Source of the DNA: an uncultured Gemmatimonadales bacterium
GTDB lineage: Bacteria > Gemmatimonadota > Gemmatimonadetes > Longimicrobiales > RSA9
Assembly: GCA_963708135.1 (NCBI GenBank)
Contig: OY970192.1
Location: 4,224,001-4,288,000, forward strand
Reading direction: 5' to 3'
DNA length: 64,000 bases
In this document: piece after piece, positions 1 to 19,930 of the stretch
How the letters are laid out: every line of letters starts with the position of its first letter
Numbering within the stretch: position 1 is the first letter of the stretch
The notes under the pieces: generated by a model
What the model was told of the DNA's origin: nothing
The model's input: the letters and a program-made list of their open reading frames with translations, nothing else
The model's database searches: none
Position numbers and translations under genes: made by a program

Positions 1-1480
1 GCCAGCCAACGGGCTTGTGCGTGGCGGTGAAGCTGTACGTCGTGCGGTCCAGGTTCTGGTAGCCGAAGATGTCGTTCTGCTCCACCTCCGGCAGATAGCC
101 GATGTAGCCCCGGAACGCGCCGTCGAGCGCGTTCGGCAGACCGCTCCCCGGCGCGCAGCCCGGCGCGGGACACGCCCAGATGATCGACGTCGTGATCGGC
201 TGCTGCGCGGACGCGGTGCGCAAGGTGCTCCGCACGGCGCCGATCCCGAAGTCGAGCGTCAGCTTGTCCGTGGGCACCCAGTTGAGGGTGCCACGGCCGT
301 TCAGCTGGTTCTTCCAGTTGTACGACACCACCCCTTCGTTCCGGTCCCAGTCGAAGGAGAAGTAGTAGTTCACCTGCTCGCCGCCCCCGGAAAGATTGGC
401 GCCGTAGCCGCGCGGCAGGCCCGTGCTGAACACGGAGCCCTTGCACACGTCCCCCGCCTGGCTGTACGGCGCCGGACAGTAACCGTACTGGGTCACGGGG
501 AAGCCGACCGTGCGGTCGTGCGTCAGCACGTTCACGGCGACGGCCTGGCCGTCGGCGCCCTTGTAGTAGACGGGGCCGAAGAGCTCCTCCGGGTTGGGCA
601 GCCAGTTGGCCCCCTGACGCGCCTGGAAGTGGAAGGTCGGCTTTCCGGCGTGCCCCTTCTTCGTGATGATGTTGATCACCCCGTTCGAGGCTTCGGTGCC
701 GTACAGCGTGGCCGCCGACGGCCCCTTGATGATCTCGATGCTCTGGATGTCCTCCGGGTCGATGTCGTTCAGCCGCGACGGCGGCGTGCGCGCGTCCGTC
801 CCCACGCCCGCCGCGCCGCCGAAGTCCGCGTTGTTGTTGTTCACCCGCACCCCGTCAATGTAGATCAGTGGCTCCGAGCTCAGGCTCATGCTGCTCACGC
901 CGCGAATCCGGATGTTCGAGCCCGCACCGATCTCGCCGCGTGAGCGCGCCACCTGAACCCCCGCCACCTGCCCGCCGAGCAGCGATTCGAGGTTCGGCGG
1001 AGGCGCCTCCGCCACCAGCTGGTCCGCCCGCACCTTGCCCACCGAGTTCCCCAGCGAGCGCACCTGCTGCGCACCCGGCGTCCCCGTCACCACCAGCTCG
1101 TTCAGCGTCAGCGCCGCTTGCGACAGCGCGATCCGGATCGCCAGATCGCCCACGCGTGCATCCTGCTCCGCCGTCCGGTAGCCCAGCATGACCACCTGGA
1201 GCCGCACGTCGTTCCCCGAAACGCCCTCGATCCGGAACCGCCCGTCCGCTGTCGTCAGTGCACCGCTCTGCGTCCCCATCACCACGACCTGGGCCCCCGC
1301 CAGCGGCCGCGCGGACGCCGCGTCCACCACCTGCCCGCCCACCGCCTGCTGAGCCCGCACCGCGGCCGGCGCCCAGAACCCCAGCAGCACCGCCGCCGCG
1401 ACCACCGCCCGGCCCGGCACTCCACCACCGCGCCCGGCACGACAACCCCGGAAGCTTCCCGGAGAGCGTCTGCTTGTCAT
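1..1480 (-). CDS. SusC/RagA-family TonB-linked outer membrane receptor (3' part runs off the window)
   Basis: Not in the ORF track because it is open at the window edge. Manual translation from ATG 1480 (GGAGGA RBS upstream): signal peptide ending AVRAQQ, CarboxypepD_reg-like GQVVDAASARPLAGAQV...GRFRI, ELVVTG TonB-box-like motif, plug motifs IRIRG, PLIYIDGV and DIQSIEIIKGPSAATLYGTEASNGVINIITKKG. Confidence 0.93.
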   Translation of the reverse strand, partial: MTSRRSPGSFRGCRAGRGGGVPGRAVVAAAVLLGFWAPAAVRAQQAVGGQVVDAASARPLAGAQVVVMGTQSGALTTADGRFRIEGVSGNDVRLQVVMLGYRTAEQDARVGDLAIRIALSQAALTLNELVVTGTPGAQQVRSLGNSVGKVRADQLVAEAPPPNLESLLGGQVAGVQVARSRGEIGAGSNIRIRGVSSMSLSSEPLIYIDGVRVNNNNADFGGAAGVGTDARTPPSRLNDIDPEDIQSIEIIKGPSAATLYGTEASNGVINIITKKGHAGKPTFHFQARQGANWLPNPEELFGPVYYKGADGQAVAVNVLTHDRTVGFPVTQYGYCPAPYSQAGDVCKGSVFSTGLPRGYGANLSGGGEQVNYYFSFDWDRNEGVVSYNWKNQLNGRGTLNWVPTDKLTLDFGIGAVRSTLRTASAQQPITTSIIWACPAPGCAPGSGLPNALDGAFRGYIGYLPEVEQNDIFGYQNLDRTTYSFTATHKPVGW

Positions 1481-1696
1481 CGACTCCTCCTGTGTCTCGC
1501 TGGGGGATCAACGCACGCTAAAGGCGGCAGGCCGGCATCGGCTGTCGCTGACGTCCGGGCGCGCCCCTCCCGCGGGAGGAGCGTCCCATCGACTGGGTGG
1601 TTGTCTGGGCAAAAGCGTCAACGGAGGCCGCGGCAACGCGGGACACCCCCGTCCACCGGCAGGCGAGCCCCACAGCGTGCGGGCCGCGGGGGATCC

Positions 1697-1733
1697 TGTA
1701 CACTAGCTTGTACACGGCTGCCCCTGCGGTCAA
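1697..1733 (-). promoter_or_regulatory. Putative sigma70 promoter of the SusC gene overlapped by two TGTACAC operator-like sites
   Basis: Minus strand TTGACC (1733-1728), 17 bp spacer, CAAGCT (1710-1705). TGTACA at 1697-1702 and 1709-1714. Confidence 0.55.
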
Positions 1734-1770
1734 GGGTTTTGGCGGCGGGGGGGGGGTGGGCACGGGGGGC

Positions 1771-1817
1771 TTGCGCGGGGGCCGCGCGGCGGCTTACTGT
1801 GCCCGTGTCTGTATACA
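1771..1817 (+). promoter_or_regulatory. Putative sigma70 promoter of the hydrolase operon with downstream palindrome TGTATACA
   Basis: TTGCGC (1771-1776), 18 bp spacer, TACTGT (1795-1800). Perfect palindrome TGTATACA at 1810-1817. Confidence 0.45.
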
Positions 1818-1955: not shown

Positions 1956-3527
1956 GTGCGAACGCTCCGTCAGCCGTGGCTATCCGTCCTGGCGCTCCTG
2001 CTGGCGTGCGCGGCTCCCGCGCTCGGCCAGCAGCAGCGCGCGCCGAAGGGGCTGGATGCCTACATCGAGAGCGCCATGAGAGCCTGGCAGGTGCCGGGGG
2101 TCGCGCTGGCCGTGGTGCGGAACGACTCGGTGGTGTACGCGCGCGGCTATGGTGTGCGGCAGCTGGGGAAGCCTGACCGCGTGGACACGCACACGATCTT
2201 CGCGATCGGCTCGTCGTCGAAGGCGTTCACGGTGGCGGCGATGGGGATGCTGGTGGATGAGGGGAAGGTGAAGTGGGACGACCGGGTGACGGAGGAGCTT
2301 CCGGGGTTCCAGATGTACGACCCGTGGGTGACGCGGGAGATCCGGGTGCGGGACCTCATGTGCCACCGGGCGGATGTCGAGCGGGCGGACGGGGTGTGGT
2401 ACGGCACGCCGTACGGCCGCGAGGACCTGGTGCGGCGGGTGCGGTTCCTGAAGCCGATTGCGAGCTTCCGGAGCGAGTACAGCTACAACAACATGATGTT
2501 TCTGACGGCCGGGCAGATCGTGGCGCGCGAGTTCGGGGCGTCGTGGGACGACGTGGTGCGCACGCGCATCTTCGAGCCGCTGGGGATGACGCGGACGGTG
2601 ACGACGACGAAGGTGCTGCCGTCGATGCAGGACGTTGCCACGCCGCACGAGCGCGTGGACGGGAAGGTGGTCCCGATCCGGTGGCGGAACCTGGACAACG
2701 TCGCGCCGGCGGGGGCGATCAACTCGGACGTGCTGGACATGGCGCAGTGGGTCCGCTTCCAGCTGGGCGATGGCACGTTCGGCGGCAAGCGGCTGCTGGC
2801 CGCGAAGACGCTCTCGGAGATGCACTCGCCGCAGACGATCATCCACCTGAGCCCGTGGCCGGAGAGCGAGCCGGACCCGGTGCGCGCGCTGATGGTGCCG
2901 GGCACGCACTTCATGGCGTACGGGCTCGGCTGGTTCCTGCAGGACTACCACGGCAGCCTGCTGGTGGGGCACGGCGGCGCGATCGACGGCATGCGCGCGC
3001 AGGTGGCCTTCCTCCCGGAGCGGCACCTGGGTCTCGTGATCCTGACCAATCTGGACAACAGCTCGAACAACCTTCCCGAGGCGCTGCTCTTCCGGGTGCT
3101 CGATGCCTACGCGGGCGAGCCGACGCGGGACTACGCGGGCGAGGAGCTGGCGGCGCTGCACGCCAACGATGCGAAGGTGGAGGCGGCGAAGGCGAAGGCG
3201 ATCGCGGAGCGCAACGCCGCGGCGGGGCCGTCGCTTCCGCTGGCCGGCTACGCGGGAGAGTACGCTGACAGCCTGATGGGGAGCGCGCAGGTGGCGGAGG
3301 AAGGCGGAAAGCTGACGCTGCGGCTGCCGGCGTTCTTCGGGGACCTGACGCACTGGCAGTACGACACGTTCCGCTTCACGGAGCGTGATGCGCCGGCGCC
3401 GCTGGACGTGCTGGTCACCTTCCAGATCGACGCCAGCGGCAAGGTAGTGTCGATGCAGGTGCCGGGGCTGACGACGTTCGGCCGGGTGGCGGAGCCGCTC
3501 AAGGCGGCGCCGGGAGGTGGCCGATGA
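1956..3527 (+). CDS. Exported serine hydrolase (beta-lactamase/AmpC-like family) with C-terminal DUF3471-like domain, paralog 1
   Basis: GTG 1956 after GAGGAG RBS, signal peptide, SxxK (GSSSK), YxN (YNN), HGG, C-terminal YAGEY...LTHWQYDTF. Confidence 0.9.
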   Translation: MRTLRQPWLSVLALLLACAAPALGQQQRAPKGLDAYIESAMRAWQVPGVALAVVRNDSVVYARGYGVRQLGKPDRVDTHTIFAIGSSSKAFTVAAMGMLVDEGKVKWDDRVTEELPGFQMYDPWVTREIRVRDLMCHRADVERADGVWYGTPYGREDLVRRVRFLKPIASFRSEYSYNNMMFLTAGQIVAREFGASWDDVVRTRIFEPLGMTRTVTTTKVLPSMQDVATPHERVDGKVVPIRWRNLDNVAPAGAINSDVLDMAQWVRFQLGDGTFGGKRLLAAKTLSEMHSPQTIIHLSPWPESEPDPVRALMVPGTHFMAYGLGWFLQDYHGSLLVGHGGAIDGMRAQVAFLPERHLGLVILTNLDNSSNNLPEALLFRVLDAYAGEPTRDYAGEELAALHANDAKVEAAKAKAIAERNAAAGPSLPLAGYAGEYADSLMGSAQVAEEGGKLTLRLPAFFGDLTHWQYDTFRFTERDAPAPLDVLVTFQIDASGKVVSMQVPGLTTFGRVAEPLKAAPGGGR

Positions 3528-4741
3528 GTGTCGCCGGGATCACGCGCCGGGAGGCGCTCCGGCGGGTGGGGCTCGCGGGCGCCGCCGTCGTCGCCGCGCC
3601 GATGGTGAACCTCGGTCGCTACCGCCTGTTTGCCGGCATTCCCACGGAGTACTCGGCGCGCGCGGTGAAGCTGGTCACGGAGTCGCTGGTGATCGACATG
3701 CTCGGTCCGATGCAGCTCGCGGACTCGATCGAGAGGAAGTGGTTCGGGACGCCGGACGGCTTCACGGCTGCGGACTTCCAGCGCTTCCGCGACTCGCAGA
3801 TCAACGTCTTCCACATCGCGGTGGGGATCGGCGGCCGGCAGGCGTACGAGTCGGTGCTGCTATTCGTGGCCGCGTGGAACTCGTTCATCGCGGCGCACCC
3901 CGAGTGGCTGGTGCGGATCGACCAGGCGGGGGACCTCGACACGGTGCTCGGCTCGGGGCACGTGGGCGTGCTGATCGGGCTGCAGGACTCCGACCACTTC
4001 CGCCGGCCGGAGGACGTGGACCTCTTCCACTCCCTCGGCCAGCGCGTGTCGCAGCTGACCTACAACAGCCGCAACCTCATCGGCAACGGCTCGACCGAGC
4101 GGGTGGACGGTGGCGTGAGCGACTTCGGCGCCGCGATCATCGCGCGCATGAACCAGGTCGGCATGGCCGTGGACGTCTCCCACAGCGGGGACCGCACGAC
4201 GCTGGACGCGTTGGACCTCTCGAAGCGCGCCGTCCTCTTCACGCACTCGAACTGCCGCGCCCTGAACCCGGGACACCCGCGCTGCAAGACGGACGAGGCG
4301 ATCCGCAAGATGGCCGCGCAGGGCGGCGTCATGGGGATCACCGCCGTGCGCATGTTCGTGAAGGCGACGGAGCCCACGACGATCGAGGACCTCCTCGACC
4401 ACTACGACCACGTGCGCGACCTGGTCGGCCCCGAGCACCTCGGCATCGGCACCGACAGCGATCTGGACGGCTACGACAGGATGCCGGCCGACGAGAACAA
4501 GCGGCTGCGCGCCGGCTACAAGGGCAGCTACGGCTTCCGGGACCGGATCGACATCGACGGCATGAACCACCCGAAGAAGGTGTTCGACCTCACGGAGGGG
4601 CTGATTCGCCGGAAGTACTCGGACGCCGACATCCGCGCCATCCTCGGCGGCAACTTCAAGCGCGCGCTGACGGAGATCTGGGCGGGTATGCCCGCGCCGG
4701 AGACGGCGTCGGGCACGGGGTCGGGGCAAGCCGGATCGTAG
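3524..4741 (+). CDS. Membrane/renal dipeptidase family (peptidase M19), Tat-exported
   Basis: TRREALRR twin-arginine signal, QLTYNSRN, MNQVGMAVDVSH, THSN, HPRCKTDE, GIGTD. ATGA overlap with the upstream gene. Confidence 0.88.
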   Translation: MSVAGITRREALRRVGLAGAAVVAAPMVNLGRYRLFAGIPTEYSARAVKLVTESLVIDMLGPMQLADSIERKWFGTPDGFTAADFQRFRDSQINVFHIAVGIGGRQAYESVLLFVAAWNSFIAAHPEWLVRIDQAGDLDTVLGSGHVGVLIGLQDSDHFRRPEDVDLFHSLGQRVSQLTYNSRNLIGNGSTERVDGGVSDFGAAIIARMNQVGMAVDVSHSGDRTTLDALDLSKRAVLFTHSNCRALNPGHPRCKTDEAIRKMAAQGGVMGITAVRMFVKATEPTTIEDLLDHYDHVRDLVGPEHLGIGTDSDLDGYDRMPADENKRLRAGYKGSYGFRDRIDIDGMNHPKKVFDLTEGLIRRKYSDADIRAILGGNFKRALTEIWAGMPAPETASGTGSGQAGS

Positions 4742-4791: not shown

Positions 4792-6366
4792 ATGCGAATG
4801 CGTGACGGGAGCGGGATCCGGAGGGGGGCACGCGCGGGGGTGCTCGCGGTGGCGGTGCTCTGCTCTGCGGCGCTGCCGACGGCGGGGCAGAAGGCGCCGC
4901 TCCAGGGGCTGGACGCCTACATCGGGCGGGCCATGACGGACTGGGGCGTGGCCGGGCTGTCGATCGCGGTCGTGCAGGATGACAGCGTCGTGTTCATCAA
5001 GGGGTACGGCGTGCGTGAGGCGGGCAAGCCGGCCCCGGTGGATGCCAACACGGTGTTCGCCATCGGCTCGAACACGAAGTTCTTCACGGCGGTGGCTGCC
5101 GGCACGCTGGTGGACGAGGGCCGCTTCTCCTTCGATGACCACGCCACGAAGTGGCTGCCGGACTTCCGGCTCTACGATCCGTGGGTCACGCGCGAGATCA
5201 CGATCCGGGACATGCTCTCGCACCGGAGCGGGCTGGGCCGCCGCGGCGACCTCCTCTGGTACGGCTCGCCGTACTCGCGCGCCGAGGTGCTGCGCCGGAT
5301 CCGCTACCTCGAGCCGAACACGAGCTTCCGCTCGCAGTTCGGCTATCAGAACATCATGGTGATGGGGGCGGGCCAGGCGGCCGCCGCCGCGGCGGGGATG
5401 AGCTGGGACGCCCTGGTGAAGGAGCGCATCCTCCAGCCGCTCGGCATGAGCTCCACGACCACCAGCGTGCGCGAGCTGGCGGCCATGTCGGACGTGGCCT
5501 CGCCGCACATCTGGATCGACGGCCACCCGGTGCCGATCGCCTACCGCGACATCGACAACATCGCGCCCGCCGGCTCGATCAACTCGAGCGCGCGCGACAT
5601 GGCGCAATGGCTGCGCCTGATCCTGGGCGACGGCCGCTACGCCGGCCACCAGGTGATCAAGCCCGCCACGCTGCACGACATCGAGTCGCCGCAGACGATC
5701 TCCGGCGCGCCGCACGACACGCTGCGGCCGTCCACCCACTTCGTCATGTACGGCCTCGGCATCGGCATGAGCGACTACAAGGGCGTGAAGGTCCTCCAGC
5801 ACACGGGCGGGATCGACGGCATGCTGTCGCTCGTGGCCATGGTGCCGGAGCGGCACTTCGGGCTCGTCGTGCTCACCAACACGCAGGGCCACAACGATCT
5901 GTTCACCGCGCTCATGTACCGGGTGCTCGACGCCTATCTGGGCGGCCCGACACGCGACTGGAGCGCCATCGGCCTCGCCCAGGCGAAGCGGGACGAGGTG
6001 CGCGCGGTGGAGATGGAGAAGAAGCTCGAGGCGGCGCGGGTCCCGAACACCACGCCGTCGCTGGCGCTCGAGAAGTACGCCGGCACGTACACGAGCGAGC
6101 TGTACGGCGACGCCGTGGTCACCCTCGCGGGCGACACCCTCTCGCTCCGCTTCGGGCCGAGCTTCGCGGGCACGCTCGAGCACTGGAACTACGACACCTT
6201 CCGCGCCCACTGGACGACCGGCGGCCGCGCGGCCGAGACGCTGCTGGGGCGGCCGCTCGTGACCTTCACGCTCGGCGCGGATGGGCGGCCGGCCAGCCTG
6301 GAGATCCAGGGCATCGCCACCTTCGAGCGGGCGAAGGAGAAGGCGGCGGAGCAGGAGAGGGACTAG
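4792..6366 (+). CDS. Exported serine hydrolase with DUF3471-like domain, paralog 2
   Basis: Signal peptide, GSNTK, YQN, HTGG, LEHWNYDTF. Start at 4792 or 4798. Confidence 0.9.
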   Translation: MRMRDGSGIRRGARAGVLAVAVLCSAALPTAGQKAPLQGLDAYIGRAMTDWGVAGLSIAVVQDDSVVFIKGYGVREAGKPAPVDANTVFAIGSNTKFFTAVAAGTLVDEGRFSFDDHATKWLPDFRLYDPWVTREITIRDMLSHRSGLGRRGDLLWYGSPYSRAEVLRRIRYLEPNTSFRSQFGYQNIMVMGAGQAAAAAAGMSWDALVKERILQPLGMSSTTTSVRELAAMSDVASPHIWIDGHPVPIAYRDIDNIAPAGSINSSARDMAQWLRLILGDGRYAGHQVIKPATLHDIESPQTISGAPHDTLRPSTHFVMYGLGIGMSDYKGVKVLQHTGGIDGMLSLVAMVPERHFGLVVLTNTQGHNDLFTALMYRVLDAYLGGPTRDWSAIGLAQAKRDEVRAVEMEKKLEAARVPNTTPSLALEKYAGTYTSELYGDAVVTLAGDTLSLRFGPSFAGTLEHWNYDTFRAHWTTGGRAAETLLGRPLVTFTLGADGRPASLEIQGIATFERAKEKAAEQERD

Positions 6367-10038: not shown

Positions 10039-11574
10039 ATGATCCAGAGCCGGATCCACGCGCGTCGCGCACTGCCTCTCCTGCTCCTCGCCCTGGCTGC
10101 CGCCGCGCCGGCGGCGGCGCAGAAGGCGCCCTTCAAGGGGCTGGATGCGTACGTCGAGAAGTCGATGAAGGACTGGGAGGTGCCGGGCCTCGCGCTCGCC
10201 ATCGTGAAGGACGGGCAGGTCGTCTACGAGAAGGGCTACGGCGTGCGCGAGCTGGGCAAGCCGGACGCGGTGGATCCGCAGACGCTCTTCGCCATCGGCA
10301 GCTCGAGCAAGGCGTTCACGGCCACGCTCATGGCCATGCTCGTGGACTCCGGGAAGGTCAAGTGGACGGACCCGGTCACGGACTACCTGCCGTGGTTCAG
10401 GACCTACGACCCGTACGTGACGCGGGAGATGACGATTCGCGACCTGCTCACGCACCGGAGCGGCCTGTCGCGCGGGGACGAGCTCTGGTACGGCACCACG
10501 TTGCCGCGTGACTCGATCATCTGGCGCATCCGCTGGCAGAAGCCGAGCTGGGGCTTCCGCTCCCGCTTCGGCTACAACAACATCATGTTCCTCACGGCGG
10601 GCCAGGTCGAGGCCGCGGTGACGGGCCGGACCTGGGACGAGCTGGTCCGCGAGCGCATCTTCCAGCCGCTCGGCATGGCGCGCACGGTGACGAGCACGGA
10701 GGCGCTGCCGCGCATGAGCGACGTGGCCACGCCGCACGAGAAGATCGACGGCACGGTCAAGCCGATCCGCTGGCGCAACATCGACAACATCGCGCCCGCC
10801 GGCTCGATCGTCTCGGATGTCGAGGACATGTCGAAGTGGCTGCGCCTGCAGCTGGCGGACGGGGCGTGGCAGGGGAAGCAGCTGGTGAGCGCGAAGCAGC
10901 TGGAGCAGACGCACGCGCCGCAGATGCTGATCGACATCTCGGCCGAGGCCAGGAAGCTGCACCCCACCACCCACTTCTCCACGTACGGCAACGGCTGGTT
11001 CCTCGTGGACTACCGCGGCCGCGAGGTCATCCACCACGGCGGCAACATCGACGGCTTCAGCGCCGAGGTCGACCTCGTGCCGGAGGAGAAGCTCGGGATC
11101 GTGATCCTCACGAACCTGAACGGCACGGCCCTGCGCGACGCGCTGCCGTACCGGATCTACGACATGGTCTTCGGCGGCCCGCAGAAGGACTGGAGCACCG
11201 CCTACCTCGCGCTGCGCGACAAGGCGCTCCAGCGGGCGGATTCCGTCCGGGAGGCAATGGAGAAGAAGCGGGTGGCGGGAACCAAGCCGACGCTCGCGCT
11301 GCCGGCCTACGTCGGCACCTACCGGGACACGATGTACGGGGACGTCGCCGTCACGCTCGAGGACGGGCACCTGGTCCTGCGCCGGGGGCCGGGCTTCACC
11401 TACGACCTCGAGCACTGGCAGTACGACACGTTCCGCGCGATCTCGCGCTACGAAGCCGACGCCAAGTCGTTCGTCACGTTCGATCTCGACGCCACCGGCA
11501 CGCCGGCCGTGCTGCGGATCCGCAACCTCGCCGACTTCGAGCGCGTGCCGGACACGAAGGAAGGGAGCCGGTGA
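10039..11574 (+). CDS. Exported serine hydrolase with DUF3471-like domain, paralog 3
   Basis: Signal peptide, GSSSK, YNN, HGG, LEHWQYDTF. Confidence 0.9.
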   Translation: MIQSRIHARRALPLLLLALAAAAPAAAQKAPFKGLDAYVEKSMKDWEVPGLALAIVKDGQVVYEKGYGVRELGKPDAVDPQTLFAIGSSSKAFTATLMAMLVDSGKVKWTDPVTDYLPWFRTYDPYVTREMTIRDLLTHRSGLSRGDELWYGTTLPRDSIIWRIRWQKPSWGFRSRFGYNNIMFLTAGQVEAAVTGRTWDELVRERIFQPLGMARTVTSTEALPRMSDVATPHEKIDGTVKPIRWRNIDNIAPAGSIVSDVEDMSKWLRLQLADGAWQGKQLVSAKQLEQTHAPQMLIDISAEARKLHPTTHFSTYGNGWFLVDYRGREVIHHGGNIDGFSAEVDLVPEEKLGIVILTNLNGTALRDALPYRIYDMVFGGPQKDWSTAYLALRDKALQRADSVREAMEKKRVAGTKPTLALPAYVGTYRDTMYGDVAVTLEDGHLVLRRGPGFTYDLEHWQYDTFRAISRYEADAKSFVTFDLDATGTPAVLRIRNLADFERVPDTKEGSR

Positions 11575-14111
11575 TGCGGCGCGCGGCGCGGCCGCCGCTC
11601 CTCCCCGCCCTGCTCGCGGGCGCCGGGGCCCTCTCCATCGCGCTGGGCGGGTGCACGGCGCGCAAGTCGGCACCCGAGGCGGGGGGGGCGGCGGGCAACA
11701 TCGCGGCCACGTCGCAATACGCGCCCGTGGCCGCGGCGCTCGAGCCGTTCATCCGCCACGAGCGGGCGCAGAAGGGGATCCCGGCCATCTCCGTCGCCCT
11801 GGTGGACGGGCAACACATCGTCTGGGCGCAGGGCTTCGGGATGGCGGATTCCGCGGCCGGCGTTCCGGCCACGGCGGAGACGGTCTACCGCGTCGGCTCG
11901 GTCTCGAAGCTGTTCACGGACATCGGCATCATGCAGCTGGTGGAGAAGGGGAAGCTGGACCTGGATGCGCCGGTCGAGCGCTACGTCCCGGAGTTCCACC
12001 CGCGCAACCCGTTTGGCACGCCGATCACGATCCGGGAGCTGACCTCCCACCTGGCCGGCCTGACCCGGGAGCCGCCGGTCGGCAACTACTTCGATGACAC
12101 GGAGCCCTCGCTGCGTGCGACGGTCGAGAGCCTCGACAGCACCACCCTCGTGTACGCGCCGCGCACCCACACCAAGTACTCGAACGCGGGCATCGCGGTG
12201 CTCGGCTACGTGCTCGAGAAGACGCAGGGCGAGTCCTTCTATCCGTACCTGAAGAAGGCCGTGCTCGACCCGATGGGGCTGGCCCACAGCGCATTCCAGC
12301 CGCTGCCGGCGCTCCAGGCCCGGCTGGCGAAGGCGTACATGTGGAGCTGGGACGGCAAGCGCTTCGAGGCACCCACCTTCCAGCTCGGGATCGGCCCGGC
12401 CGGCAGCCTGTACACGACCGTCGAGGACATGGGCCGCTTCATGTCCGTGCTGTTCGACGGCGGGCGCAGCGCCGATGGCCGGCAGATCGTCACCACGGCC
12501 ACCCTCGACTCGATGTGGACGCCGCAGTTCACGCCGGCGGGGCAGACGTCGGGCTACGGGATCGGTTTCCACATCGGCACGCTGGACGGGCACCGCGCCG
12601 TGGGCCACGATGGCGCGATCTACGGCTTCGCGACGGCGCTCGAGGCGCTGCCGGACGACCGGCTCGGCGTCGTGGTCGTGGCCACGCTGGACGGCGCGAA
12701 CACGACCGCAGACCGGATCGCGGCCGCCGCGCTCCGCATGATGCTGGCGCAGAAGGCGGGAACCCCGCTGCCGGTGCCGGACACCACGCGCGCGCTGCCG
12801 CCCGGCAGGGCGCTGGCGCTTCAGGGGCGCTACGCGGCCGGCGGGACGGAGGCCGCGGCGCGCGCGGCGATCAATGCGGCGCCGACTCACGACCTGTCGA
12901 GCGGCAGCTCGTCCCACTTCGGCGCCCCCGAGGTCAGGGCCGTCGATCTGACCGAATACGAGGGCCGTCTCTACCTGATGCCGCTGCGCGGCGGCAGCCG
13001 CGCCGAGATCCGGCAGGCCGCGGACGGCGGCCTCATCGTGGATGACGCGCTGGACTACGGTCAGCGCATCGGGACGCCGACGGAGGGGAGGATCGTGATC
13101 GGTGCGGACACGCTCTCGCGCGTACCGACGCGGCGTCCCGTCGCACTGGTCACCGATCCCCAGCCCGCGCAGCCCGACGCCGCGTTCACGGGCCTCATCG
13201 GCGAGTACGGCTGGGACCACGACGTGCTCTACATCCTGGAGAAGGACGGGCGGCTGAACGCGCTGATCGAGTGGTTCACGGAGTACCCGCTGACGCGCGT
13301 GTCGAAGGACGTCTATGCCTTCCCCCACTGGGGGCTCTACGACGGGCAGAAGATCGTCTTCCACCGCGACGCGCACGGGCAGGCGTACGAGGCCGTGGCC
13401 GCGAACGTCCGCTTCCGCCGCCGCCCGCTGCCCGGGGACGACAACGCGGTCTCGTTCCGCATTACCCCCGTGAAGCCCGTGGCCGAGCTGCGCAAGGAGG
13501 CGCTCGCCGCCCACCCGCCCGCGGAGAAGGGTGAGTTCCGCAAGCCCGACCTGGTCGAGCTGAGGAGTCTCGACCCGACCATCCGCTACGAGATCCGTTA
13601 CGCGGGCACCAACAACTTCATGGGCGCGCCGTTCTACACCTCCTCGCACGCCTTCATGCAGCGGCCGGCGGCGGAGGCGGTGGCGCGCGTCAGCGCGAAG
13701 CTGCGCGCGCTCGGCTACGGGCTCCTCGTCCACGACGCCTACCGCCCGTGGTACGTCACGAAGATGTTCTGGGACGGCACCCCGGTGGACAAGCACGACT
13801 TCGTGGCGGACCCCTCCCAGGGCTCCCGCCACAACCGCGGCTGCGCGGTGGACATCACGCTCTACGACCTCGGGACAGGCCGGTCGCTGCGCATGCCCGG
13901 CGGCTACGACGAGATGTCGGAGCGCTCCTTTCCGCTCTACCCGGGCGGGACCTCGCTCCAGCGCTGGCAGCGCGACGTGCTCCGCCACGCCATGGAGTCC
14001 GAGGGCTTCAACGTCTACGAGTTCGAGTGGTGGCACTTCGACTACAAGGACTGGCGCCACTACCCGATCCTGAACGTCCGCTTCGAGGACCTGGCGCGGA
14101 CGAGCGCGTGA
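11574..14111 (+). CDS. Lipoprotein fusing a serine hydrolase (beta-lactamase-like) to a C-terminal D-alanyl-D-alanine dipeptidase (VanX/DdpX, M15D)
   Basis: Lipobox LGGC. N-terminal domain GSVSK, YSN, HDG. C-terminal domain DAYRP, SRHNRGCAVD, EWWHF. Confidence 0.9.
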   Translation: MRRAARPPLLPALLAGAGALSIALGGCTARKSAPEAGGAAGNIAATSQYAPVAAALEPFIRHERAQKGIPAISVALVDGQHIVWAQGFGMADSAAGVPATAETVYRVGSVSKLFTDIGIMQLVEKGKLDLDAPVERYVPEFHPRNPFGTPITIRELTSHLAGLTREPPVGNYFDDTEPSLRATVESLDSTTLVYAPRTHTKYSNAGIAVLGYVLEKTQGESFYPYLKKAVLDPMGLAHSAFQPLPALQARLAKAYMWSWDGKRFEAPTFQLGIGPAGSLYTTVEDMGRFMSVLFDGGRSADGRQIVTTATLDSMWTPQFTPAGQTSGYGIGFHIGTLDGHRAVGHDGAIYGFATALEALPDDRLGVVVVATLDGANTTADRIAAAALRMMLAQKAGTPLPVPDTTRALPPGRALALQGRYAAGGTEAAARAAINAAPTHDLSSGSSSHFGAPEVRAVDLTEYEGRLYLMPLRGGSRAEIRQAADGGLIVDDALDYGQRIGTPTEGRIVIGADTLSRVPTRRPVALVTDPQPAQPDAAFTGLIGEYGWDHDVLYILEKDGRLNALIEWFTEYPLTRVSKDVYAFPHWGLYDGQKIVFHRDAHGQAYEAVAANVRFRRRPLPGDDNAVSFRITPVKPVAELRKEALAAHPPAEKGEFRKPDLVELRSLDPTIRYEIRYAGTNNFMGAPFYTSSHAFMQRPAAEAVARVSAKLRALGYGLLVHDAYRPWYVTKMFWDGTPVDKHDFVADPSQGSRHNRGCAVDITLYDLGTGRSLRMPGGYDEMSERSFPLYPGGTSLQRWQRDVLRHAMESEGFNVYEFEWWHFDYKDWRHYPILNVRFEDLARTSA

Positions 14112-15115
14112 GCGAGACCGTCCGCGTGGCCGTGGTACAGGCGGCGCCGCGCCCGTTCGACCGCGAGGCGGCCGTCCTCCGGGTGCGCGAGCTCGCCCTC
14201 GAGGCGGCCCGCCGCGGCGCGCGGCTCGCCCTCTTCCCCGAGGCCTACATCCCCGCCTACCCGTGGGGCCTCATCTTCGGCACCCGCGTCGGCGGCCGCA
14301 GCGAGGAGGGGCGCCGGCTGTGGCAACGCTACTGGGAGAACGCGGTCGCGGTGGACGAGGAGGGCGACGTCGCCGGCTCCGCCCGCCACGCCCTCTCCGA
14401 CGCCGCCCGCGAGGCGGGGCTCCACCTGGCCGTAGGCGTGGTGGAGCGGGACGCCCGCCACTCCCGCGGCACGCTCTACTGCACGCTGCTTCACTTCGGC
14501 CCCGACGGCCGGCTGCTCGGGAGGCATCGGAAGCTCAAGCCGACCGCCGCCGAGCGCATCATCTGGGGCGAGGGTGATGGCAGCACGCTCCCGGTCGTGG
14601 CGACGCCGCTCGGCCGCGTGGGCGGGCTGATCTGCTGGGAGAACTACATGCCGCTGGCCCGCATGGCCCTCTACGACCGCGGCGTCGAGATCTACCTGGC
14701 GCCCACGGCCGATGCCCGCGACGCGTGGCAGGCCACCATGCGCCACATTGCCGTCGAGGGGCGCTGCTTCGTCCTCGGCTGCAACCAGTACGTGACGCGC
14801 GACCTCTACCCGGCCGACCTGCCCGGGCTCGCCGAGGTCGAGGGCCTCGACCGCGCCGACGGCACGCCCGGCCGGCCGAAGGTGCTCTGCCGGGGCGGCA
14901 GCGTGATCGTCGGCCCGCTGGGGGACGTGCTGGCCGGCCCGCTCTGGGACGAGGAGGGGATCCTCACGGCCGACCTCGACATGGGCGCGCTGCCGCGCGC
15001 GAAGTTCGACTTCGATGTCGTCGGGCACTACGCGCGCCCCGACGTGTTCCGGCTGATCGTGAACGAGGCGCCCGCCGAGCCGGTCGAGCGGCAGGGCGCC
15101 GGGGAGGAAACATGA
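14108..15115 (+). CDS. Nitrilase (carbon-nitrogen hydrolase, branch 1-like)
   Basis: Catalytic triad motifs FPEAY, HRKLKPT and LICWENYMPLAR, C-terminal FDVVGHYARPDVF. No signal peptide. Confidence 0.92.
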   Translation: MSETVRVAVVQAAPRPFDREAAVLRVRELALEAARRGARLALFPEAYIPAYPWGLIFGTRVGGRSEEGRRLWQRYWENAVAVDEEGDVAGSARHALSDAAREAGLHLAVGVVERDARHSRGTLYCTLLHFGPDGRLLGRHRKLKPTAAERIIWGEGDGSTLPVVATPLGRVGGLICWENYMPLARMALYDRGVEIYLAPTADARDAWQATMRHIAVEGRCFVLGCNQYVTRDLYPADLPGLAEVEGLDRADGTPGRPKVLCRGGSVIVGPLGDVLAGPLWDEEGILTADLDMGALPRAKFDFDVVGHYARPDVFRLIVNEAPAEPVERQGAGEET

Positions 15116-16086
15116 GACGATCACGTCTGGCCACGGCGGCGCTTCTCGCCGGCGTGGGGTCGGCGGCGGCGGGCGTGAGCGCGGCGGCGCAGTCGCCGCT
15201 CGAGGACTCCGTGCGGGCGGTGCTGGCGGGCATCCCGGCGTCGAGCTCCGTCTACGCGCAGCACCTGCCGGACGGGCGCACGCTCGCGATCCGCGCGGAC
15301 GTGCCGATGAACACGGCCAGCGTGATCAAGATCCCGGTCATGGTGCGGGCGTTCCGGGATGCCGAGGCGGGCAGGCTCGACCTCGACGCCCGCTACACCA
15401 TCCGGCCGGAGGACCAGCGCCGCGGATCGGGGCTGCTACAGACGTTTCAGCCGGGGCTCGCGCCGACGTACCGCGACCTGATCACGCAGATGATCATCAC
15501 GAGCGACAACACCGCCACCGACATCATGATCCACACCGTCGGCCTCGCCCGTGTGAACGCGCTCCTCGATTCCCTCGGCTACCGGCAGACGCGGCTGCGC
15601 GAGACCGTCGGCGACGCGTTCCGCGCCGTCTGGGAGCTCGCGAGCCCCGCCAACCAGAAGATGACGGACCGCGAGGTCTTCGAGCGCGGCTTCCCCGCGG
15701 ACAGCGTAGTCGCCCGCAAGATGCCGGCGTTCGTGGCCGACTCCTCCGAGTGGCTGGGCCGAACGACGGCGCGGGAGATCGCGCGCCTGCTCGGGCAGAT
15801 CTACGGCGGCAACCTGGCCAACGCCGAGCACACGAAGGAGATGGTGGGTATCCTGCGCCGGCAGTTCTACACCTCGCGCCTGCCGCGCTACATCCAGGAG
15901 AAGGCGTCCGTCGCCCACAAGACCGGGGACTGGCCGCCCTTCCTGGCCAACGATGTGGGCATCCTGTTCTACAACGGCGGCCCGACCATCGCCGCGGTGT
16001 TCACGAACGGCAACACCGGTCCCTACATCGACGTCGAGCGCGCCATCGGCCGCGTGGCCGAGCTGCTCGTCAACGGCTGGCGCTGA
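15112..16086 (+). CDS. Class A beta-lactamase-like serine hydrolase (Beta-lactamase2 family), exported
   Basis: Signal peptide, TASVIK, SDN, HKTG, NDVG. Confidence 0.88.
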   Translation: MRRSRLATAALLAGVGSAAAGVSAAAQSPLEDSVRAVLAGIPASSSVYAQHLPDGRTLAIRADVPMNTASVIKIPVMVRAFRDAEAGRLDLDARYTIRPEDQRRGSGLLQTFQPGLAPTYRDLITQMIITSDNTATDIMIHTVGLARVNALLDSLGYRQTRLRETVGDAFRAVWELASPANQKMTDREVFERGFPADSVVARKMPAFVADSSEWLGRTTAREIARLLGQIYGGNLANAEHTKEMVGILRRQFYTSRLPRYIQEKASVAHKTGDWPPFLANDVGILFYNGGPTIAAVFTNGNTGPYIDVERAIGRVAELLVNGWR

Positions 16087-16232: not shown

Positions 16233-16267
16233 CCCTTTGCGAGCGGCGGCCGTTGCGTACGCGGGCC

Positions 16268-16723: not shown

Positions 16724-17824
16724 TCAACGGGGCGTCCCCGCGCCCGTCCCCGACTCCCCCGGATTGAACGTGAAGTAGTCGTAGACCGCGCGCGCGATCT
16801 GCGCGATCCCCTTCACCCGCTCCTCTTCCCGCAGCTTCGAGTCCTTGATGAAGAGCGCGACGGCGACGTGTCCGGCGCCGTCCGGCAGCGTGATGATGCC
16901 CACGTCATTGGCCGTGCCGCCGATGGTGCCGGTCTTGTGCGCCACCACGGTGCCGGGCGGGAGCATCCCCTTGATGCGGTCGGGCCCCGTCTGGCAGCGG
17001 CTCATGATGTCGAGCAGCAGGCTCGTGCTCGCGGGGGAGAGCGCCTTGCCGCGCCAGATCCGCGTCAGCAGCGCGAGCATGGCGTCCGGCGTCAACTGGT
17101 CGCGCGGGTCCGAGCTGAAGGCCGCCTCGGCCGCCTGGCGCCGGTCCGCCGGCACCGCCCTGGCCAGCTCGCGGAAGCGCTCCGGCGAGATCGCGCCGTC
17201 GGCCGGGACGTCGGCTACGCCCAGCCAGTCCCCGATGAGCTGCGAGGTGTAGCGGTCCACCCGCAGGCCATCCACCCCCAGCGCCCGCACGCGTGCCGTC
17301 ACCGCGGCGGGGCCGCCCGACAGCCGGTCGCTGAGGTCGGCGGCGCTGTTGTCGCTGATCAGCATCATCAGCTCGAGGATGTTGCGCACCGAGAGGGCGA
17401 CGCCCGGCTTGTTGAACAGGTCGGTCAGCGTGCCGCTGCCCGGGTGCAGGTCCTCGGGCTGGATCGTGACCATGCTGTCGAGCCGGAGCTCGCCCCGATC
17501 GACCCGCGTCAGCACCGCGGTGGCGATCGCCACCTTGTACGTGCTGGCCATGGGGAAGGGCATGTCCGCGTGCAGCGCCACGCGCCGTCCGGTCTCCAGG
17601 TGGACGGCGACGACGCCCATGGTGCCTCCGGAGACCGGCTCCAGCCGCGCGATCTCCCGCTCGAGGCGCGCGAGGCCCGGGTCGGCGGCACGGACCTCGG
17701 CGCGCGCGGCGGCCGGCCGGGCGCCCGTCGCCTGCGCGACGGCTCCGCTCGAGGAGAGGGAGAGCAGCGCGGCGGCGAGCAGCGGCCCGCCCGCGCGGCG
17801 GATGCGCATCGGGTTCACCTTCAT
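16724..17824 (-). CDS. Class A beta-lactamase-like serine hydrolase, exported
   Basis: Signal peptide, FPMASTYK, SDN, RCQTG, HKTGT, NDVGII. Confidence 0.9.
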   Translation of the reverse strand: MKVNPMRIRRAGGPLLAAALLSLSSSGAVAQATGARPAAARAEVRAADPGLARLEREIARLEPVSGGTMGVVAVHLETGRRVALHADMPFPMASTYKVAIATAVLTRVDRGELRLDSMVTIQPEDLHPGSGTLTDLFNKPGVALSVRNILELMMLISDNSAADLSDRLSGGPAAVTARVRALGVDGLRVDRYTSQLIGDWLGVADVPADGAISPERFRELARAVPADRRQAAEAAFSSDPRDQLTPDAMLALLTRIWRGKALSPASTSLLLDIMSRCQTGPDRIKGMLPPGTVVAHKTGTIGGTANDVGIITLPDGAGHVAVALFIKDSKLREEERVKGIAQIARAVYDYFTFNPGESGTGAGTPR

Positions 17825-17936
17825 GGCGGACCTCCTGGATGGATGGGCGGATGCACGGCGCGCGGGCTCGGCGCCAGGCGGGTTCCTCGCGTGGGGGCGG
17901 CGTGGTGCGGCGGACGGCCGGTCGACCGCCCCCCGT

Positions 17937-19058
17937 CTAGCGTGCGAGGGTGGCGCGGCGCACGGTCAGGTCCTCGATCCGGTCGAGGTCCACCTCCACC
18001 CCGAGGCCAGGCCGGTCCAGGGGCACGGCCACCATCCCGTCGGCGTCCATGGTCCATTCCGGCTTCACGATGTCGCGCGCCCAGTAGCGTGCGCTCGGCG
18101 AGAGGTCGCCCGGGATCCGGAAGTTCGGCAGCGAGGCGAGAGCCACGTTGTGCGCCCGTCCGATCCCGCTCTCCAGCATCCCGCCGCACCATACCGGGAT
18201 GTCGTTCTTCGCGCACAGGTCGTGGATCGCGATCGAGACCGCGAAGCCGCCCACCCGGCCCGGCTTGATGTTGATGATGCGGCCGCTGCCGAGCGTGATC
18301 ATGTCCTCCGCCCGGTTGAGCGAGGTGATCGACTCATCGAGGCAGATCGGCGTCCGCAGGCGTCGCTGCAGCGCCGCGTGGCGCACCAGGTCCTCGCGCT
18401 CGAGCGGCTGCTCGATCATGACCAGCTCGAAGGCGTCGAGCTCCGCCAGGTGATCCGCATCCTCGAGGGTGTAGGCGTTGTTGGCGTCTGCCATGAGCGG
18501 CGCGTCGGGAAGCGCCCGCCGCACCGCCCCTACGTACTCCACGTCGTGGCCCGGCTCGATCTTCAGCTTGATCTTGTGGTAGCCCTCCTGGTAGGCGCTC
18601 CGCGCGCGCAGCACGAGGTCCTGCGGCGTCGCCTGGATCCCCAGCGAGATCCCCACCTCGATGCGCGGCCGCGTCCCCCCGAGCCGCCTCGCCAGCGGCA
18701 CCCCCTCCAGCTCCGCCGCGAGCGCCCATACTCCCATCTCGATCGCGGCCTTCGCCATCCGATGGCCGCGGATGCCGTCGTCCAGCATCCCGATCGCATC
18801 CTCCGGGCTCGAGAGCTCGCGCCCCAGGATGCGCGGAGCCAGCCACTTCTCGAGCGCCAGCCACGCGGTGTCGATCGTCTCCGGGCTGTAGTTCGGCTGC
18901 TCGTCCGCCACGCACTCCGACCACGACGTCGCCCCGTCGGGGTGATGCAGCTCCAGCAGACAGATCCGCCGCTCCGACATCACTCCCGACGAGATGCGGA
19001 ACGGCTCCTTGAGCGGAAGATGGATCTCCCGCAGATCGATCGCGTCCACGCGCAGCAT
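17937..19058 (-). CDS. menC: o-succinylbenzoate synthase / N-succinylamino-acid racemase (NSAR/OSBS subfamily, enolase superfamily)
   Basis: KIKLKI, DAN, EQP, DES, NIKPGRVGG, WCGGMLES, PGDLS. ATG overlaps the upstream TGA. No other men genes nearby. Confidence 0.9.
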   Translation of the reverse strand: MLRVDAIDLREIHLPLKEPFRISSGVMSERRICLLELHHPDGATSWSECVADEQPNYSPETIDTAWLALEKWLAPRILGRELSSPEDAIGMLDDGIRGHRMAKAAIEMGVWALAAELEGVPLARRLGGTRPRIEVGISLGIQATPQDLVLRARSAYQEGYHKIKLKIEPGHDVEYVGAVRRALPDAPLMADANNAYTLEDADHLAELDAFELVMIEQPLEREDLVRHAALQRRLRTPICLDESITSLNRAEDMITLGSGRIINIKPGRVGGFAVSIAIHDLCAKNDIPVWCGGMLESGIGRAHNVALASLPNFRIPGDLSPSARYWARDIVKPEWTMDADGMVAVPLDRPGLGVEVDLDRIEDLTVRRATLAR

Positions 19059-19930
19059 CAGGTCTTCGCCCCCCTCTCGGGTCCGGTCAGGACGTAGAAG
19101 CACCGCCCACTCGCCGGATCCCGGTAGAACCCCCGCACCCGGCACCCCGCGCCGAGCGCCCACGCCAGCGCCTCGCGCGTCGGAAGCCGCCAGCGCATCG
19201 CACCCGCACGCCCCGACTCCGCCACCACGGCATCAATGTCCTCCGGGATCTCCAGCCGGACCTCCCGCCCGTACGGCCGCAGCAGCGCGTTCCGCTCCGC
19301 GACCGACAGGCCGTTCAGCACCGGCGCTTCCCCGTGCGCCTGCGCCTGCGCATCCGGCCGCGGCGGCGAGGCCGGCTTCTGCGTGCCGACCTCCCATGAC
19401 ACGATGAAGCGGTCCGTGCCGAAGCCGTGCAGCTCGCTGCCGGTGTCCCCGTACATGTCCTCCACGTGGTCCGTCACCACCGCGCCGAGGAGGTTCAGGT
19501 TCAGGTGCGCGTTGCGCGCCACCAGCGGGTCGAACGTCCAGTATATCCGGCGGATCCCGCGCTCCGCGAGCACCTGCCACTGCAGCCGCTTCAGCCGCCG
19601 CCCGATCCCGTGGTCCCGCAGCTCCCGCCGCACCGCTAGCATGTGCGACCAGTGCACCAGCTCACCATCCTCGATCCCCGTCATCCCGAAGACGAAGCCC
19701 ACCAGCCGGCCCGTGCCATCGAACGCACCCGCCGTGACACCGCCGATCCGATTGGTGATCTTCAGGATCGTGGCGGGTATTACCTCGTTGAAGCCTTCGC
19801 CCCACGTGTCGCGCTGCAGCTCCAGGCACGCGTGGTATTCCTCCCGCGTGTGGAGCAGCCGGATCTCCATCGCGCGCAGCGCCGGATCCGGCGAGGCAGT
19901 CAGATGTGGAGAAGACTCGTAGGTAGCCAT
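19058..19930 (-). CDS. GNAT-family acyltransferase, probable amino-acid N-succinyltransferase partner of NSAR
   Basis: GAFD..LVGF, HWSHMLAV, GIGRRLK, WTFDPLVARNAHLNL, DMYG, TDRF. Translationally coupled to the racemase. Confidence 0.87.
   Translation of the reverse strand: MATYESSPHLTASPDPALRAMEIRLLHTREEYHACLELQRDTWGEGFNEVIPATILKITNRIGGVTAGAFDGTGRLVGFVFGMTGIEDGELVHWSHMLAVRRELRDHGIGRRLKRLQWQVLAERGIRRIYWTFDPLVARNAHLNLNLLGAVVTDHVEDMYGDTGSELHGFGTDRFIVSWEVGTQKPASPPRPDAQAQAHGEAPVLNGLSVAERNALLRPYGREVRLEIPEDIDAVVAESGRAGAMRWRLPTREALAWALGAGCRVRGFYRDPASGRCFYVLTGPERGAKT

Follow-up and report, generated by a model that had tools for sequence, protein, structure and literature searches.

In soil, the D-amino acids of peptidoglycan and non-ribosomal peptides form a large pool of organic nitrogen closed to ordinary proteases. 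Polysaccharide utilization loci (PULs) encode carbohydrate-active enzymes (CAZymes) together with SusCD transporters, RagAB of Porphyromonas gingivalis is a peptide importer, and the ddp operon of Escherichia coli, which encodes the VanX homologue DdpX and a dipeptide ATP-binding cassette (ABC) transporter, serves the use of D-Ala-D-Ala in starvation. Here we describe a block of about 31.7 kb (G000:C1:4212349-4244050) in the genome of an uncultured soil Gemmatimonadales bacterium (G000), about 11.6 kb of which lies left of the 64,000-nucleotide stretch analyzed (hereafter the window; G000:C1:4224001-4288000 on one single 5.45-Mb contig). It brings together genes for outer-membrane importers, about ten exported hydrolases from families that for the most part cleave D-amino-acid peptide bonds, and a cytoplasmic pair for D-to-L amino-acid conversion. 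On balance, and by a modest degree, we favor reading this block as a CAZyme-free, PUL-like nutrient locus for D-amino-acid-containing peptides, with the stem peptides of dead-bacteria peptidoglycan as likely substrates and non-ribosomal peptides as possible ones; that it is a real, co-regulated scavenging system is probable.

A D-to-L amino-acid conversion operon of Geobacillus kaustophilus consists of genes for a GNAT succinyltransferase, an N-succinylamino-acid racemase (NSAR), and an M20 L-desuccinylase (Sakai et al. 2006, as relayed in the consulted portion of PMC12006748). In Pyrococcus abyssi, Pab87 neighbors a D-aminoacylase and a peptide transporter, and the accessible part of PMC2651629 proposes scavenging of cell-wall debris containing D-amino acids. 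The S12 family (PF00144) includes Lip3 and Lip7, D-stereospecific or DL-peptidases acting on non-ribosomal peptides (PMC12903863, in excerpt), and resistance peptidases of the BogQ/TriF type are cited in an extract of PMC12516957. The available section of a review of D-acylases (PMC12149444) holds nothing on genomic context.

As in the G. kaustophilus operon, the locus encodes a GNAT protein (g12; gene labels are given in Table 1) and an NSAR-type enolase with all catalytic residues (g11), and an M20D gene follows in 46 of 80 related loci; unlike that operon, the G000 locus carries the gene of an exported class A-like protein where M20D would stand, g12 is likened by family only, and the module is tied to exported hydrolases, SusCD importers, and a putative GntR operator. 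The modeled g6 protein resembles Pab87/CubicO in that it appears to combine an S12 catalytic domain with a lipocalin-like one at the C-terminus (about 495 columns align in the fold match to 2qmi), but the proteins of the present locus are exported to a Gram-negative periplasm, uptake would be by SusCD instead of an ABC transporter, and there are many more enzyme types as well as a D-to-L module. Lip3 (9sn1), which has the same fold class, ranks near the top of the matches for both g6 and g7; whereas Lip3/Lip7 and BogQ/TriF are described in defense or activation roles, the context here is one of importers and amino-acid salvage. With PULs and RagAB the locus shares a SusC/RagA transporter with an adjacent SusD/RagB lipoprotein, a divergent exported degradative operon, and a local regulator, while it differs from them in having D-peptide-type hydrolases in place of any CAZyme and in belonging to the phylum Gemmatimonadota, and from PULs in having a putative GntR/FCD regulator and not a hybrid two-component or SusR/extracytoplasmic function (ECF)-anti-sigma system. 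Like the E. coli ddp operon, it links a VanX/DdpX-type domain with intact zinc motifs to an uptake system; this domain (in g7) scores below the DdpX equivalog cut-off of 176, is fused to an S12 domain, is predicted to be lipid-anchored outside the cytoplasm, and goes with another transporter type.

The original prediction knew of no such integrated system. Individual pieces have precedents (the D-to-L pathway, Pab87, ddp/DdpX, RagAB, and the S12 lipopeptide peptidases), and the Pab87 paper, in the part available, anticipates the general idea; the integrated SusCD-linked system was not found described. The full-text literature searched contained no description of a SusCD-linked D-peptide locus or of its operator, although subscription journals were mostly outside that scope and absence from print is not proven.

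Organization of the Locus

Because the GC content of the window is about 70%, reading frames were chosen by the periodicity of third-position GC (GC3). Nine plus-strand genes (g1 to g9) form an operon that diverges from the SusC1 gene, with every gap at most 50 nt and four overlaps, and a minus-strand unit converging on it comprises g12, g11, and g10. Eight of the nine operon products have N-terminal export signals (six Sec-like, a twin-arginine motif in g2, and a lipobox in g7), g8 being the sole product without one; these calls were made by eye, not with a signal-peptide predictor. In the 20 kb of left flank examined, the gene order is as follows: on the minus strand, an APC-family permease for amino acids and then a fifth hydrolase of PF00144; on the plus strand, a regulator of GntR/FCD-like type, SusC2, and SusD2; and again on the minus strand, SusD1 and SusC1. 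Pfam and NCBIfam matches bear out the gene content read earlier from the sequence alone (a divergent SusC gene and a nine-gene operon with four S12 proteins, M19, VanX, and others), as the N-termini do for the eight exported products; the ninth operon gene, left unnamed there, is the NIT4-like nitrilase gene g8. The presence of SusD and GntR genes left of the window had been set beforehand as a test, and both were found there.

Both SusC proteins belong to the SusC/RagA family: full-length TIGR04056 scores are 443.3 bits for SusC1 and 457.6 bits for SusC2 (cut-off 368.25), and the CarboxypepD_reg, Plug, and barrel domains are present. With the short signature model TIGR04057 they score 41-42, just under the cut-off of 46.2. 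A SusD/RagB gene lies directly downstream of each SusC gene, and the SusD N-termini carry a lipobox; the match of SusD2 to PF07980 is weak (24.6 bits, cut-off 23.1). No CAZyme domain (glycoside hydrolase, lyase, carbohydrate esterase, or carbohydrate-binding module) was found in any of the 20 locus products, and the locus therefore falls outside the strict definition of a PUL, in which CAZymes are encoded with a SusCD pair.

Farther left, G000:C1:4190001-4206000 contains one more aminoacylase-like gene, with no GTATAC site and otherwise unrelated DNA, for which reason the left boundary was set at the permease gene. The DNA right of 20.1 kb, which encodes an ECF sigma factor, a TolC/HlyD/MacB efflux set, Nramp, and other proteins, was considered and rejected as part of the locus. 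A scan of window positions 1-21000 against Rfam gave no match at E ≤ 0.1. A search of sequencing runs for this DNA listed a soil-metagenome DNA run and no RNA run.

Table 1. Features of the locus (window positions unless a genome coordinate is given)
Feature	Position	Strand	Description	Evidence or remarks
SusC1	2..1480	-	N-terminal 493 aa of a 1053-aa SusC/RagA-type TonB-dependent transporter	Runs off left edge; Pfam CarboxypepD_reg and Plug
SusD1	G000:C1:4220913-4222307		SusD, just past left edge of window	PF07980, 56.0 bits
TGTACA pair	1697..1714	.	Two half-palindromes, 12 nt apart	Divergent SusC1/g1 intergenic region, nearer SusC1
TGTATACA	1810..1817	.	Operator-like palindrome	139 nt upstream of likely g1 start
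g1	1956..3527	+	Exported S12 (PF00144) serine hydrolase with C-terminal DUF3471	Pfam, 202 and 66 bits
g2	3524..4741	+	M19 membrane-dipeptidase family, twin-arginine-type signal	PF01244, 240 bits
g3	4792..6366	+	Exported S12 + DUF3471 hydrolase	Pfam; 48-50% identical to g1 and g6
g4	6414..8075	+	Exported D-aminoacylase-like amidohydrolase, variant metal site	PDB 1m7j, 4.7e-63
g5	8108..10012	+	Exported S15 hydrolase of the alpha-amino-acid ester hydrolase (AEH) type, CocE/NonD	PDB 1mpx, 3.5e-151; 2b4k, 1.5e-148; full length
g6	10039..11574	+	Exported S12 + lipocalin-like (DUF3471) hydrolase, Pab87-like two-domain architecture	Pfam, AlphaFold model
g7	11574..14111	+	Lipoprotein, S12 domain fused to VanX/DdpX-type D-Ala-D-Ala dipeptidase domain	PF00144, 230 bits; PF01427 (Peptidase_M15), 112.6 bits, cut-off 27
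g8	14108..15115	+	Cytoplasmic NIT4-like nitrilase (CN_hydrolase)	PDB 6i00, 2.9e-89; E43/K140/C176 triad
g9	15112..16086	+	Exported class A-fold, penicillin-binding protein A (PBP-A)-like serine hydrolase (Beta-lactamase2)	PF13354, 202 bits
g10	16724..17824	-	Exported class A beta-lactamase-like protein	bla_class_A (NF033103), 227.5 bits, cut-off 200
g11	17937..19058	-	N-succinyl/N-acylamino-acid racemase (NSAR/OSBS subfamily)	TIGR01928, 329 bits, cut-off 200.65
g12	19058..19930	-	GNAT acyltransferase	PF00583, 26.4 bits; overlaps g11 start region
GGTATACA	20043..20050	.	7/8 match to palindrome	114 nt upstream of GNAT, 62 nt upstream of divergent ECF sigma gene

Predicted Functions of the Gene Products

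Every S12 domain, the VanX domain, and g8, g9, g10, and g11 retain intact catalytic motifs. The racemase candidate g11 matches the solved N-acylamino-acid racemases 1r0m and 2ggg over its full length (about 1e-96); alignment with 1r0m shows conserved KLKIxPG, INIKPGRVGG, DAN, EQP, and DES motifs, so that both catalytic lysines (KxK and K-x-x-R), the D/E/D metal ligands, and an Arg three residues past the second lysine are kept, in catalytic roles that we take to be those of the NSAR family. These roles are partly confirmed in the consulted text of PMC12006748. By family score, catalytic residues, and the Arg equivalent to R266, g11 is thus a predicted NSAR. A sequence search of the PDB with g12 gave no match at E ≤ 0.01. 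In the published pathway, GNAT succinyltransferase and NSAR act together with an M20 L-desuccinylase (PMC12006748, in the part seen).

The plain S12 hydrolases g1, g3, and g6 are mutually 48-51% identical and are therefore old paralogues and not fresh duplicates; the SxxK, YxN, and HxG motifs are present in g1, and these residues of g1, g3, and g6 are invariant across 15 homologues. For g1, a GTG start at 1956 is more likely than the ATG at 1818, because it is preceded by a GGAGG ribosome-binding site and yields a proper signal peptide. The AlphaFold model of g6 (predicted local distance difference test score 89) has IS11, Pab87 (2qmi), the Lip3 DL-peptidase, and SurE as its top two-domain fold matches, followed by ClbP, DAP, and R61; the match to 2qmi has an E value of 2e-30, template modeling scores of 0.61/0.69, and 494 columns, and the esterase IS11 matches equally well. 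Most of the nearest solved S12 relatives are D-specific (Pab87, ClbP, R61 DD-peptidase, alkaline D-peptidase, DAP, SurE, and Lip3). A class C beta-lactamase identity was considered for the PF00144 proteins and rejected, since their scores against NF033085 (g1, 87; g3, 96; g6, 109; g7, 81; flank S12, 91 bits) are far from the cut-off of 415.

In g7 the S12 motifs are intact, and the VanX domain has the zinc motifs SxHxxGxAxD (SRHNRGCAVD) and ExxH (EWWH). The best NCBIfam match of this domain is to DdpX (PRK10178, 134.8 bits), and its VanX score is 91.6 against a cut-off of 320. Full-length g7 orthologues in relatives are 50-73% identical, and the S12-VanX architecture occurs in seven Atlas clusters, none of which has a functional name; the commonest phyla of the top three are Gemmatimonadota, Bacteroidota, and Planctomycetota. 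Among the remaining exported enzymes, g2 matches PDB entries 2i5g (2e-37) and Sco3058 (3id7; 1e-23), and g5 scores 264 bits with TIGR00976 (cut-off 66) and has a nucleophile motif of the GxSYxG type (GVSYPG).

The nitrilase g8 is translationally coupled inside the operon of exported hydrolases by 4-nt overlaps on both sides, and its NIT4-type relatives include beta-cyanoalanine nitrilases. We rejected it as a candidate for the missing desuccinylase, as it is an NIT4-type nitrilase with no counterpart in any of 159 related loci. Of the two class A-fold proteins, g9 has SxxK, SDN, and KTG, lacks the E166 motif, and scores 97 with bla_class_A (NF033103; cut-off 200), its nearest PDB entries being 4ewf and Tll2115. 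The other, g10, has STYK, SDN, and KTG with RVDRYTSQLI in place of the E166/N170 motif, and occupies the slot that holds the M20D amidohydrolase gene in related loci.

Conservation in Related Loci

The 20 locus proteins were compared by tblastn, at a threshold of E ≤ 1e-15, with three groups of related loci from Gemmatimonadota, some Acidobacteriota, and other phyla, namely 80 loci around NSAR orthologues, 79 around AEH homologues (159 in total), and loci around g7 orthologues. Relative to counts expected from G000's own gene density, a rough measure taken from one genome, the 80 NSAR loci contained genes for GNAT in 73 cases (0.7 expected), the aminoacylase-like protein in 26 (1.6), GntR in 18 (0.5), the S12-VanX fusion in 12 (0.2), plain S12 in 11 (5.7), SusC in nine (4.7), SusD in six (2.9), the permease in six (1.8), M19 in four (0.5), and AEH/S15 in one (1.4), while class A-like proteins (0.7) and the nitrilase (0.2) were found in none. 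An M20D amidohydrolase gene (TIGR01891, 339 bits) stood directly after NSAR in 46 loci, so that these have all three genes (GNAT, NSAR, and M20) known from the published D-to-L route. The conserved core is accordingly GNAT-NSAR, usually followed by M20D, to which the aminoacylase-like lipoprotein, GntR, and S12-VanX genes are strongly attached. Recurrent layouts have fusion, GntR, and aminoacylase-like genes divergent from GNAT-NSAR-M20D; S12, SusD, and SusC genes divergent from GNAT-NSAR; or M19 and GntR genes divergent from GNAT-NSAR. In one further genome (G009), two GntR genes adjoin the g7 orthologue, with NSAR and GNAT about 12 kb away. Four genomes with g7 orthologues are flagged unpublished and supplied two of the loci seen; no conclusion drawn here depends on them.

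In the majority of the 79 AEH loci no other locus gene was found, AEH being mostly stand-alone outside Gemmatimonadota. Parts of the block are repeated in a subset from Gemmatimonadota (L066, L069, L067, L075, L077, L082, and L096) and Acidobacteriota (L049, L054, and L057). L075 is the plainest example: on one contig it has a compact form of the locus in which NSAR and GNAT genes diverge, across a TGTATACA site, from SusC, SusD, AEH, and S12 genes in that order; the three acidobacterial loci have NSAR, S12, AEH, permease, S12, and aminoacylase-like genes in succession, all but the permease on one strand.

These comparisons uphold GNAT plus NSAR as a conserved conversion pair, as had been proposed, with its third enzyme present in most relatives; for the G000 locus itself the pair stands and the complete triad does not. 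The proposed co-localization fared unevenly: it holds for the aminoacylase-like, GntR, PF00144-VanX, and M19 genes, is about twofold for SusC, SusD, and plain S12, and fails for the nitrilase and class A-like genes and for the mostly stand-alone AEH.

A Candidate GntR Regulator and Its Operator-Like Palindrome

The locus regulator matches GntR-family NCBIfam models, all below their cut-offs, and is 47% identical to a paralogue carrying PF00392 and PF07729. In the 5.45-Mb genome the AT-rich palindrome TGTATACA has 14 copies, compared with a median of two for 64 palindromes of equal GC content, and besides the copy in front of g1 there is one 154 nt upstream of SusC2. The 80 NSAR loci (1.25 Mb) contain 24 copies, of which 21 are intergenic just upstream of GNAT; the motif precedes GNAT in 15 of 18 loci with a GntR orthologue versus 6 of 62 without, and the GNAT-upstream copies yield the extended consensus CAGAATTGTATACAATTCTG. 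GntR-type operators follow a GT-Nx-AC pattern. The palindrome fits this pattern and may be bound by the locus regulator, and the TGTACA pair is possibly a second regulator site. A shared operator-like palindrome thus links the transcription units, which favors the earlier claim of one integrated system, against which the weak synteny of SusCD has to be set.

Other copies of TGTATACA in G000 flank a pair of gamma-glutamyl-transpeptidase and SusC genes, two S9 peptidase genes, an M6 peptidase gene, PF00144 genes, and a gene for a DAO-family oxidoreductase, and one lies at a paralogous SusC-SusD-PF00144-GntR unit; because of these flanking genes the palindrome appears to mark a wider peptide-use regulon, while three sites lack an obvious link. 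At three of the G000 sites outside the locus, SusC and PF00144 genes are close by, one of these sites being that of the paralogous unit. In this unit (G000:C1:5147771-5155938; L191 2771-10938), a PGA_cap protein gene, TGTATACA, and SusC, SusD, PF00144, and GntR/FCD (the 47% identical paralogue) genes follow one another on one strand, with an enolase-superfamily (MR_MLE) gene and an S12+DUF3471 gene about 4 kb away. At G000:C1:305373-316586 (L192) the palindrome lies between the gamma-glutamyl-transpeptidase gene and a SusC-SusD pair, near a PF00144 gene, an S15-family gene (detected by tblastn only), and a gene for a GNAT 50% identical to g12. Two sites 267 nt apart (G000:C1:4107245 and 4107512; L186) lie between S12+DUF3471 and Amidohydro_2 genes, followed by a SusC gene. 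On a contig of a related Gemmatimonadota member (L120 282-3512), a gene for a Tricorn-like S41/PDZ/PD40 protease begins right where a TGTATACA site lies; permease, S12, aminoacylase-like, GntR, GNAT, NSAR, SusD, and SusC genes are further members of that locus. At the right end of the block, the intergenic region with the 7/8 palindrome is shared by GNAT and the divergent ECF sigma gene, which is followed by a TolC-HlyD-MacB/FtsX efflux set (window 20111-26563); in L100 an ECF sigma gene (65% identical) has the same position beside GNAT.

Repeats within the Block

The 637-bp gap between g9 and g10 contains two copies of a 53-nt hairpin element (window 16294-16408; GGGGAGTTGAC...GTCAACTCCCC), which has 33 blastn matches genome-wide, the best 20 of them at 94-100% identity, and is therefore regarded as a dispersed extragenic palindrome resembling repetitive extragenic palindromic (REP) elements. 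Positions 16155-16198, close upstream of the hairpin pair, are taken up by a 9-nt tandem run (GGCGCACCC x4).

Proposed Mechanism and Alternative Explanations

In the proposed scheme, the two SusC/SusD pairs would carry oligopeptides through the outer membrane. In the periplasm, the four S12 enzymes and the flank S12, the VanX domain, the M19, aminoacylase-like, and AEH-type enzymes, and the two class A-fold, PBP-like proteins would dismantle them, with substrates and stereochemistry assigned by family likeness, and the APC-family permease would import the free amino acids. In the cytoplasm, GNAT would N-acylate D-amino acids, NSAR would racemize the N-acyl derivative, and M20D amidohydrolase, encoded at the locus in most relatives and not in G000, should release the L-amino acid. 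The GntR/FCD regulator, with which the motif co-occurs, probably controls the units via the CAGAATTGTATACAATTCTG-type palindrome. We regard as firm the GNAT-NSAR(-M20D) core and the conserved linkage to it of four further elements, namely the exported enzyme resembling aminoacylase, the lipoprotein with the S12-VanX fusion, M19, and GntR with its operator. Judged by synteny, the weakest parts are the SusCD importers and the plain S12 proteins, their link resting more on the shared palindrome, L075, and the paralogous loci; AEH, the nitrilase, and both class A-like proteins are accessory in G000.

Several observations weigh against a D-peptide locus of this kind. The M20D gene is absent at the G000 locus, its best match elsewhere in the genome lying 1.7 Mb away at 41.5% identity. 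The D-stereopreference of the enzymes is a prediction from family likeness, and the top fold match of g6 is an esterase (IS11), in a family, PF00144, that also takes in esterases and beta-lactamases. A canonical D-aminoacylase identity did not hold up for g4. In comparison with 1m7j, g4 lacks three canonical metal ligands (H67->M and H69->Q, which form the HxH motif, and C96->E, at the zinc-binding Cys) and so departs from the residue pattern of 1m7j-type deacylases of N-acyl-D-amino acids, keeping H220, H250, and D366 (two His and the catalytic Asp; residue numbers are those we take to apply to this type of enzyme); since the variant pattern, along with lipoprotein-type N-termini, recurs in five homologues (orthologues and paralogues), g4 represents a distinct exported subfamily. 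SusC, SusD, and plain S12 genes are no more than about twofold enriched near NSAR and abundant in G000 (21, 13, and 26 copies, respectively), SusC is found near AEH in five loci versus 5.1 expected among 79, and g8, g9, and g10 do not recur with the rest of the block in the related loci compared. The g7 orthologues of three complete sister-family genomes (G025, G027, and G033) have no other locus gene nearby, in a range of about 20 kb on the upstream and 15 kb on the downstream side, bar one weak PF00144 match in G033. The related loci are moreover kin and thus not independent, and the expected counts are rough. Finally, no murein amidase or glycosidase gene was found in the block, which makes whole muropeptides unlikely substrates and suggests free peptides.

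General oligopeptide or protein scavenging, with S12, S15, and M19 proteins as ordinary L-peptidases and GNAT-NSAR clearing an occasional D-amino acid, would need no link to D-residues and would accord with the L-acting or non-stereospecific members known in all three families, with the mostly stand-alone AEH homologues, and with the S9, M6, and gamma-glutamyl-transpeptidase genes at other TGTATACA sites, which point to a broad peptide regulon. We consider it rather unlikely given the intact zinc motifs of the VanX domain, the tight conservation of aminoacylase-like, S12-VanX, and GntR genes beside GNAT-NSAR-M20D, and the mainly D-specific nearest solved S12 relatives. Chance is a much less credible account of the block: the presence in G000 of 26 S12, 21 SusC, and 13 SusD genes, some of which would merely adjoin an unrelated GNAT-NSAR pair, the only about twofold enrichment of these families near NSAR, and an architecture that is mosaic across relatives have to be set against five S12 genes in about 32 kb where about 0.15 would be expected from 26 in 5.45 Mb, a translationally coupled operon, a shared and conserved operator, the compact L075 locus, and 16- to 60-fold enrichment of the aminoacylase-like, GntR, and fusion genes.

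The SusCD importers, permease, and D-to-L genes point to food uptake and not to defense, which is one reason why an island for the detoxification or catabolism of beta-lactams or non-ribosomal peptide antibiotics, in which class A/C-like proteins would attack the beta-lactam ring, AEH would strip off alpha-aminoacyl side chains, and S12 D-peptidases would cut lipopeptides, seems quite improbable to us. Such an island would suit g10, which exceeds the NCBIfam class A cut-off (227.5 versus 200), and AEHs are known as beta-lactam acylases (from PDB titles); S12 DL- and D-peptidases that cleave lipopeptides are also on record (PMC12903863 and PMC12516957, each in part). The PF00144 proteins, by contrast, score 81-109 bits versus the class C cut-off of 415 and g9 scores 97 versus 200, g10 is without the E166/N170 motif, and neither g9 nor g10 is conserved in related loci. 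Periplasmic remodeling or recycling of the cell's own peptidoglycan is very doubtful. DD-peptidase-like and VanX-like enzymes do act on own stem peptides in many bacteria, and the hydrolases, judged from their signals by eye, are all periplasmic, but this account leaves two TonB-dependent SusCD importers and the attached catabolic D-to-L module aside, and genes for AmpG, LdcA, Mpl, an amidase, and a lytic transglycosylase are absent from the block. We therefore retain the nutrient locus for D-amino-acid-containing peptides as our preferred explanation. More tentatively, soil Gemmatimonadota and some Acidobacteriota may run a D-peptide regulon in which several CAZyme-free SusCD loci under one GntR-type operator (CAGAATTGTATACAATTCTG) import D-peptides from necromass or of non-ribosomal origin, break them down by S12, VanX, M19, variant aminoacylase, and AEH enzymes, and salvage the products by N-acylation and racemization.

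Implications

The phylum Gemmatimonadota is abundant yet little studied. If the present interpretation is correct, the locus would define specific genes, together with a candidate site of regulation, for the recycling of necromass peptides. It would also carry the SusCD/PUL concept over to D-peptides and into a further phylum, as a D-chirality peptide counterpart of PULs, and would suggest natural roles for AEH, D-aminoacylase-like enzymes, NSAR, and the uncharacterized PF00144-VanX fusion. It would, moreover, account for the dozens of "beta-lactamase-family" genes, probably not resistance genes, that are found in soil genomes.

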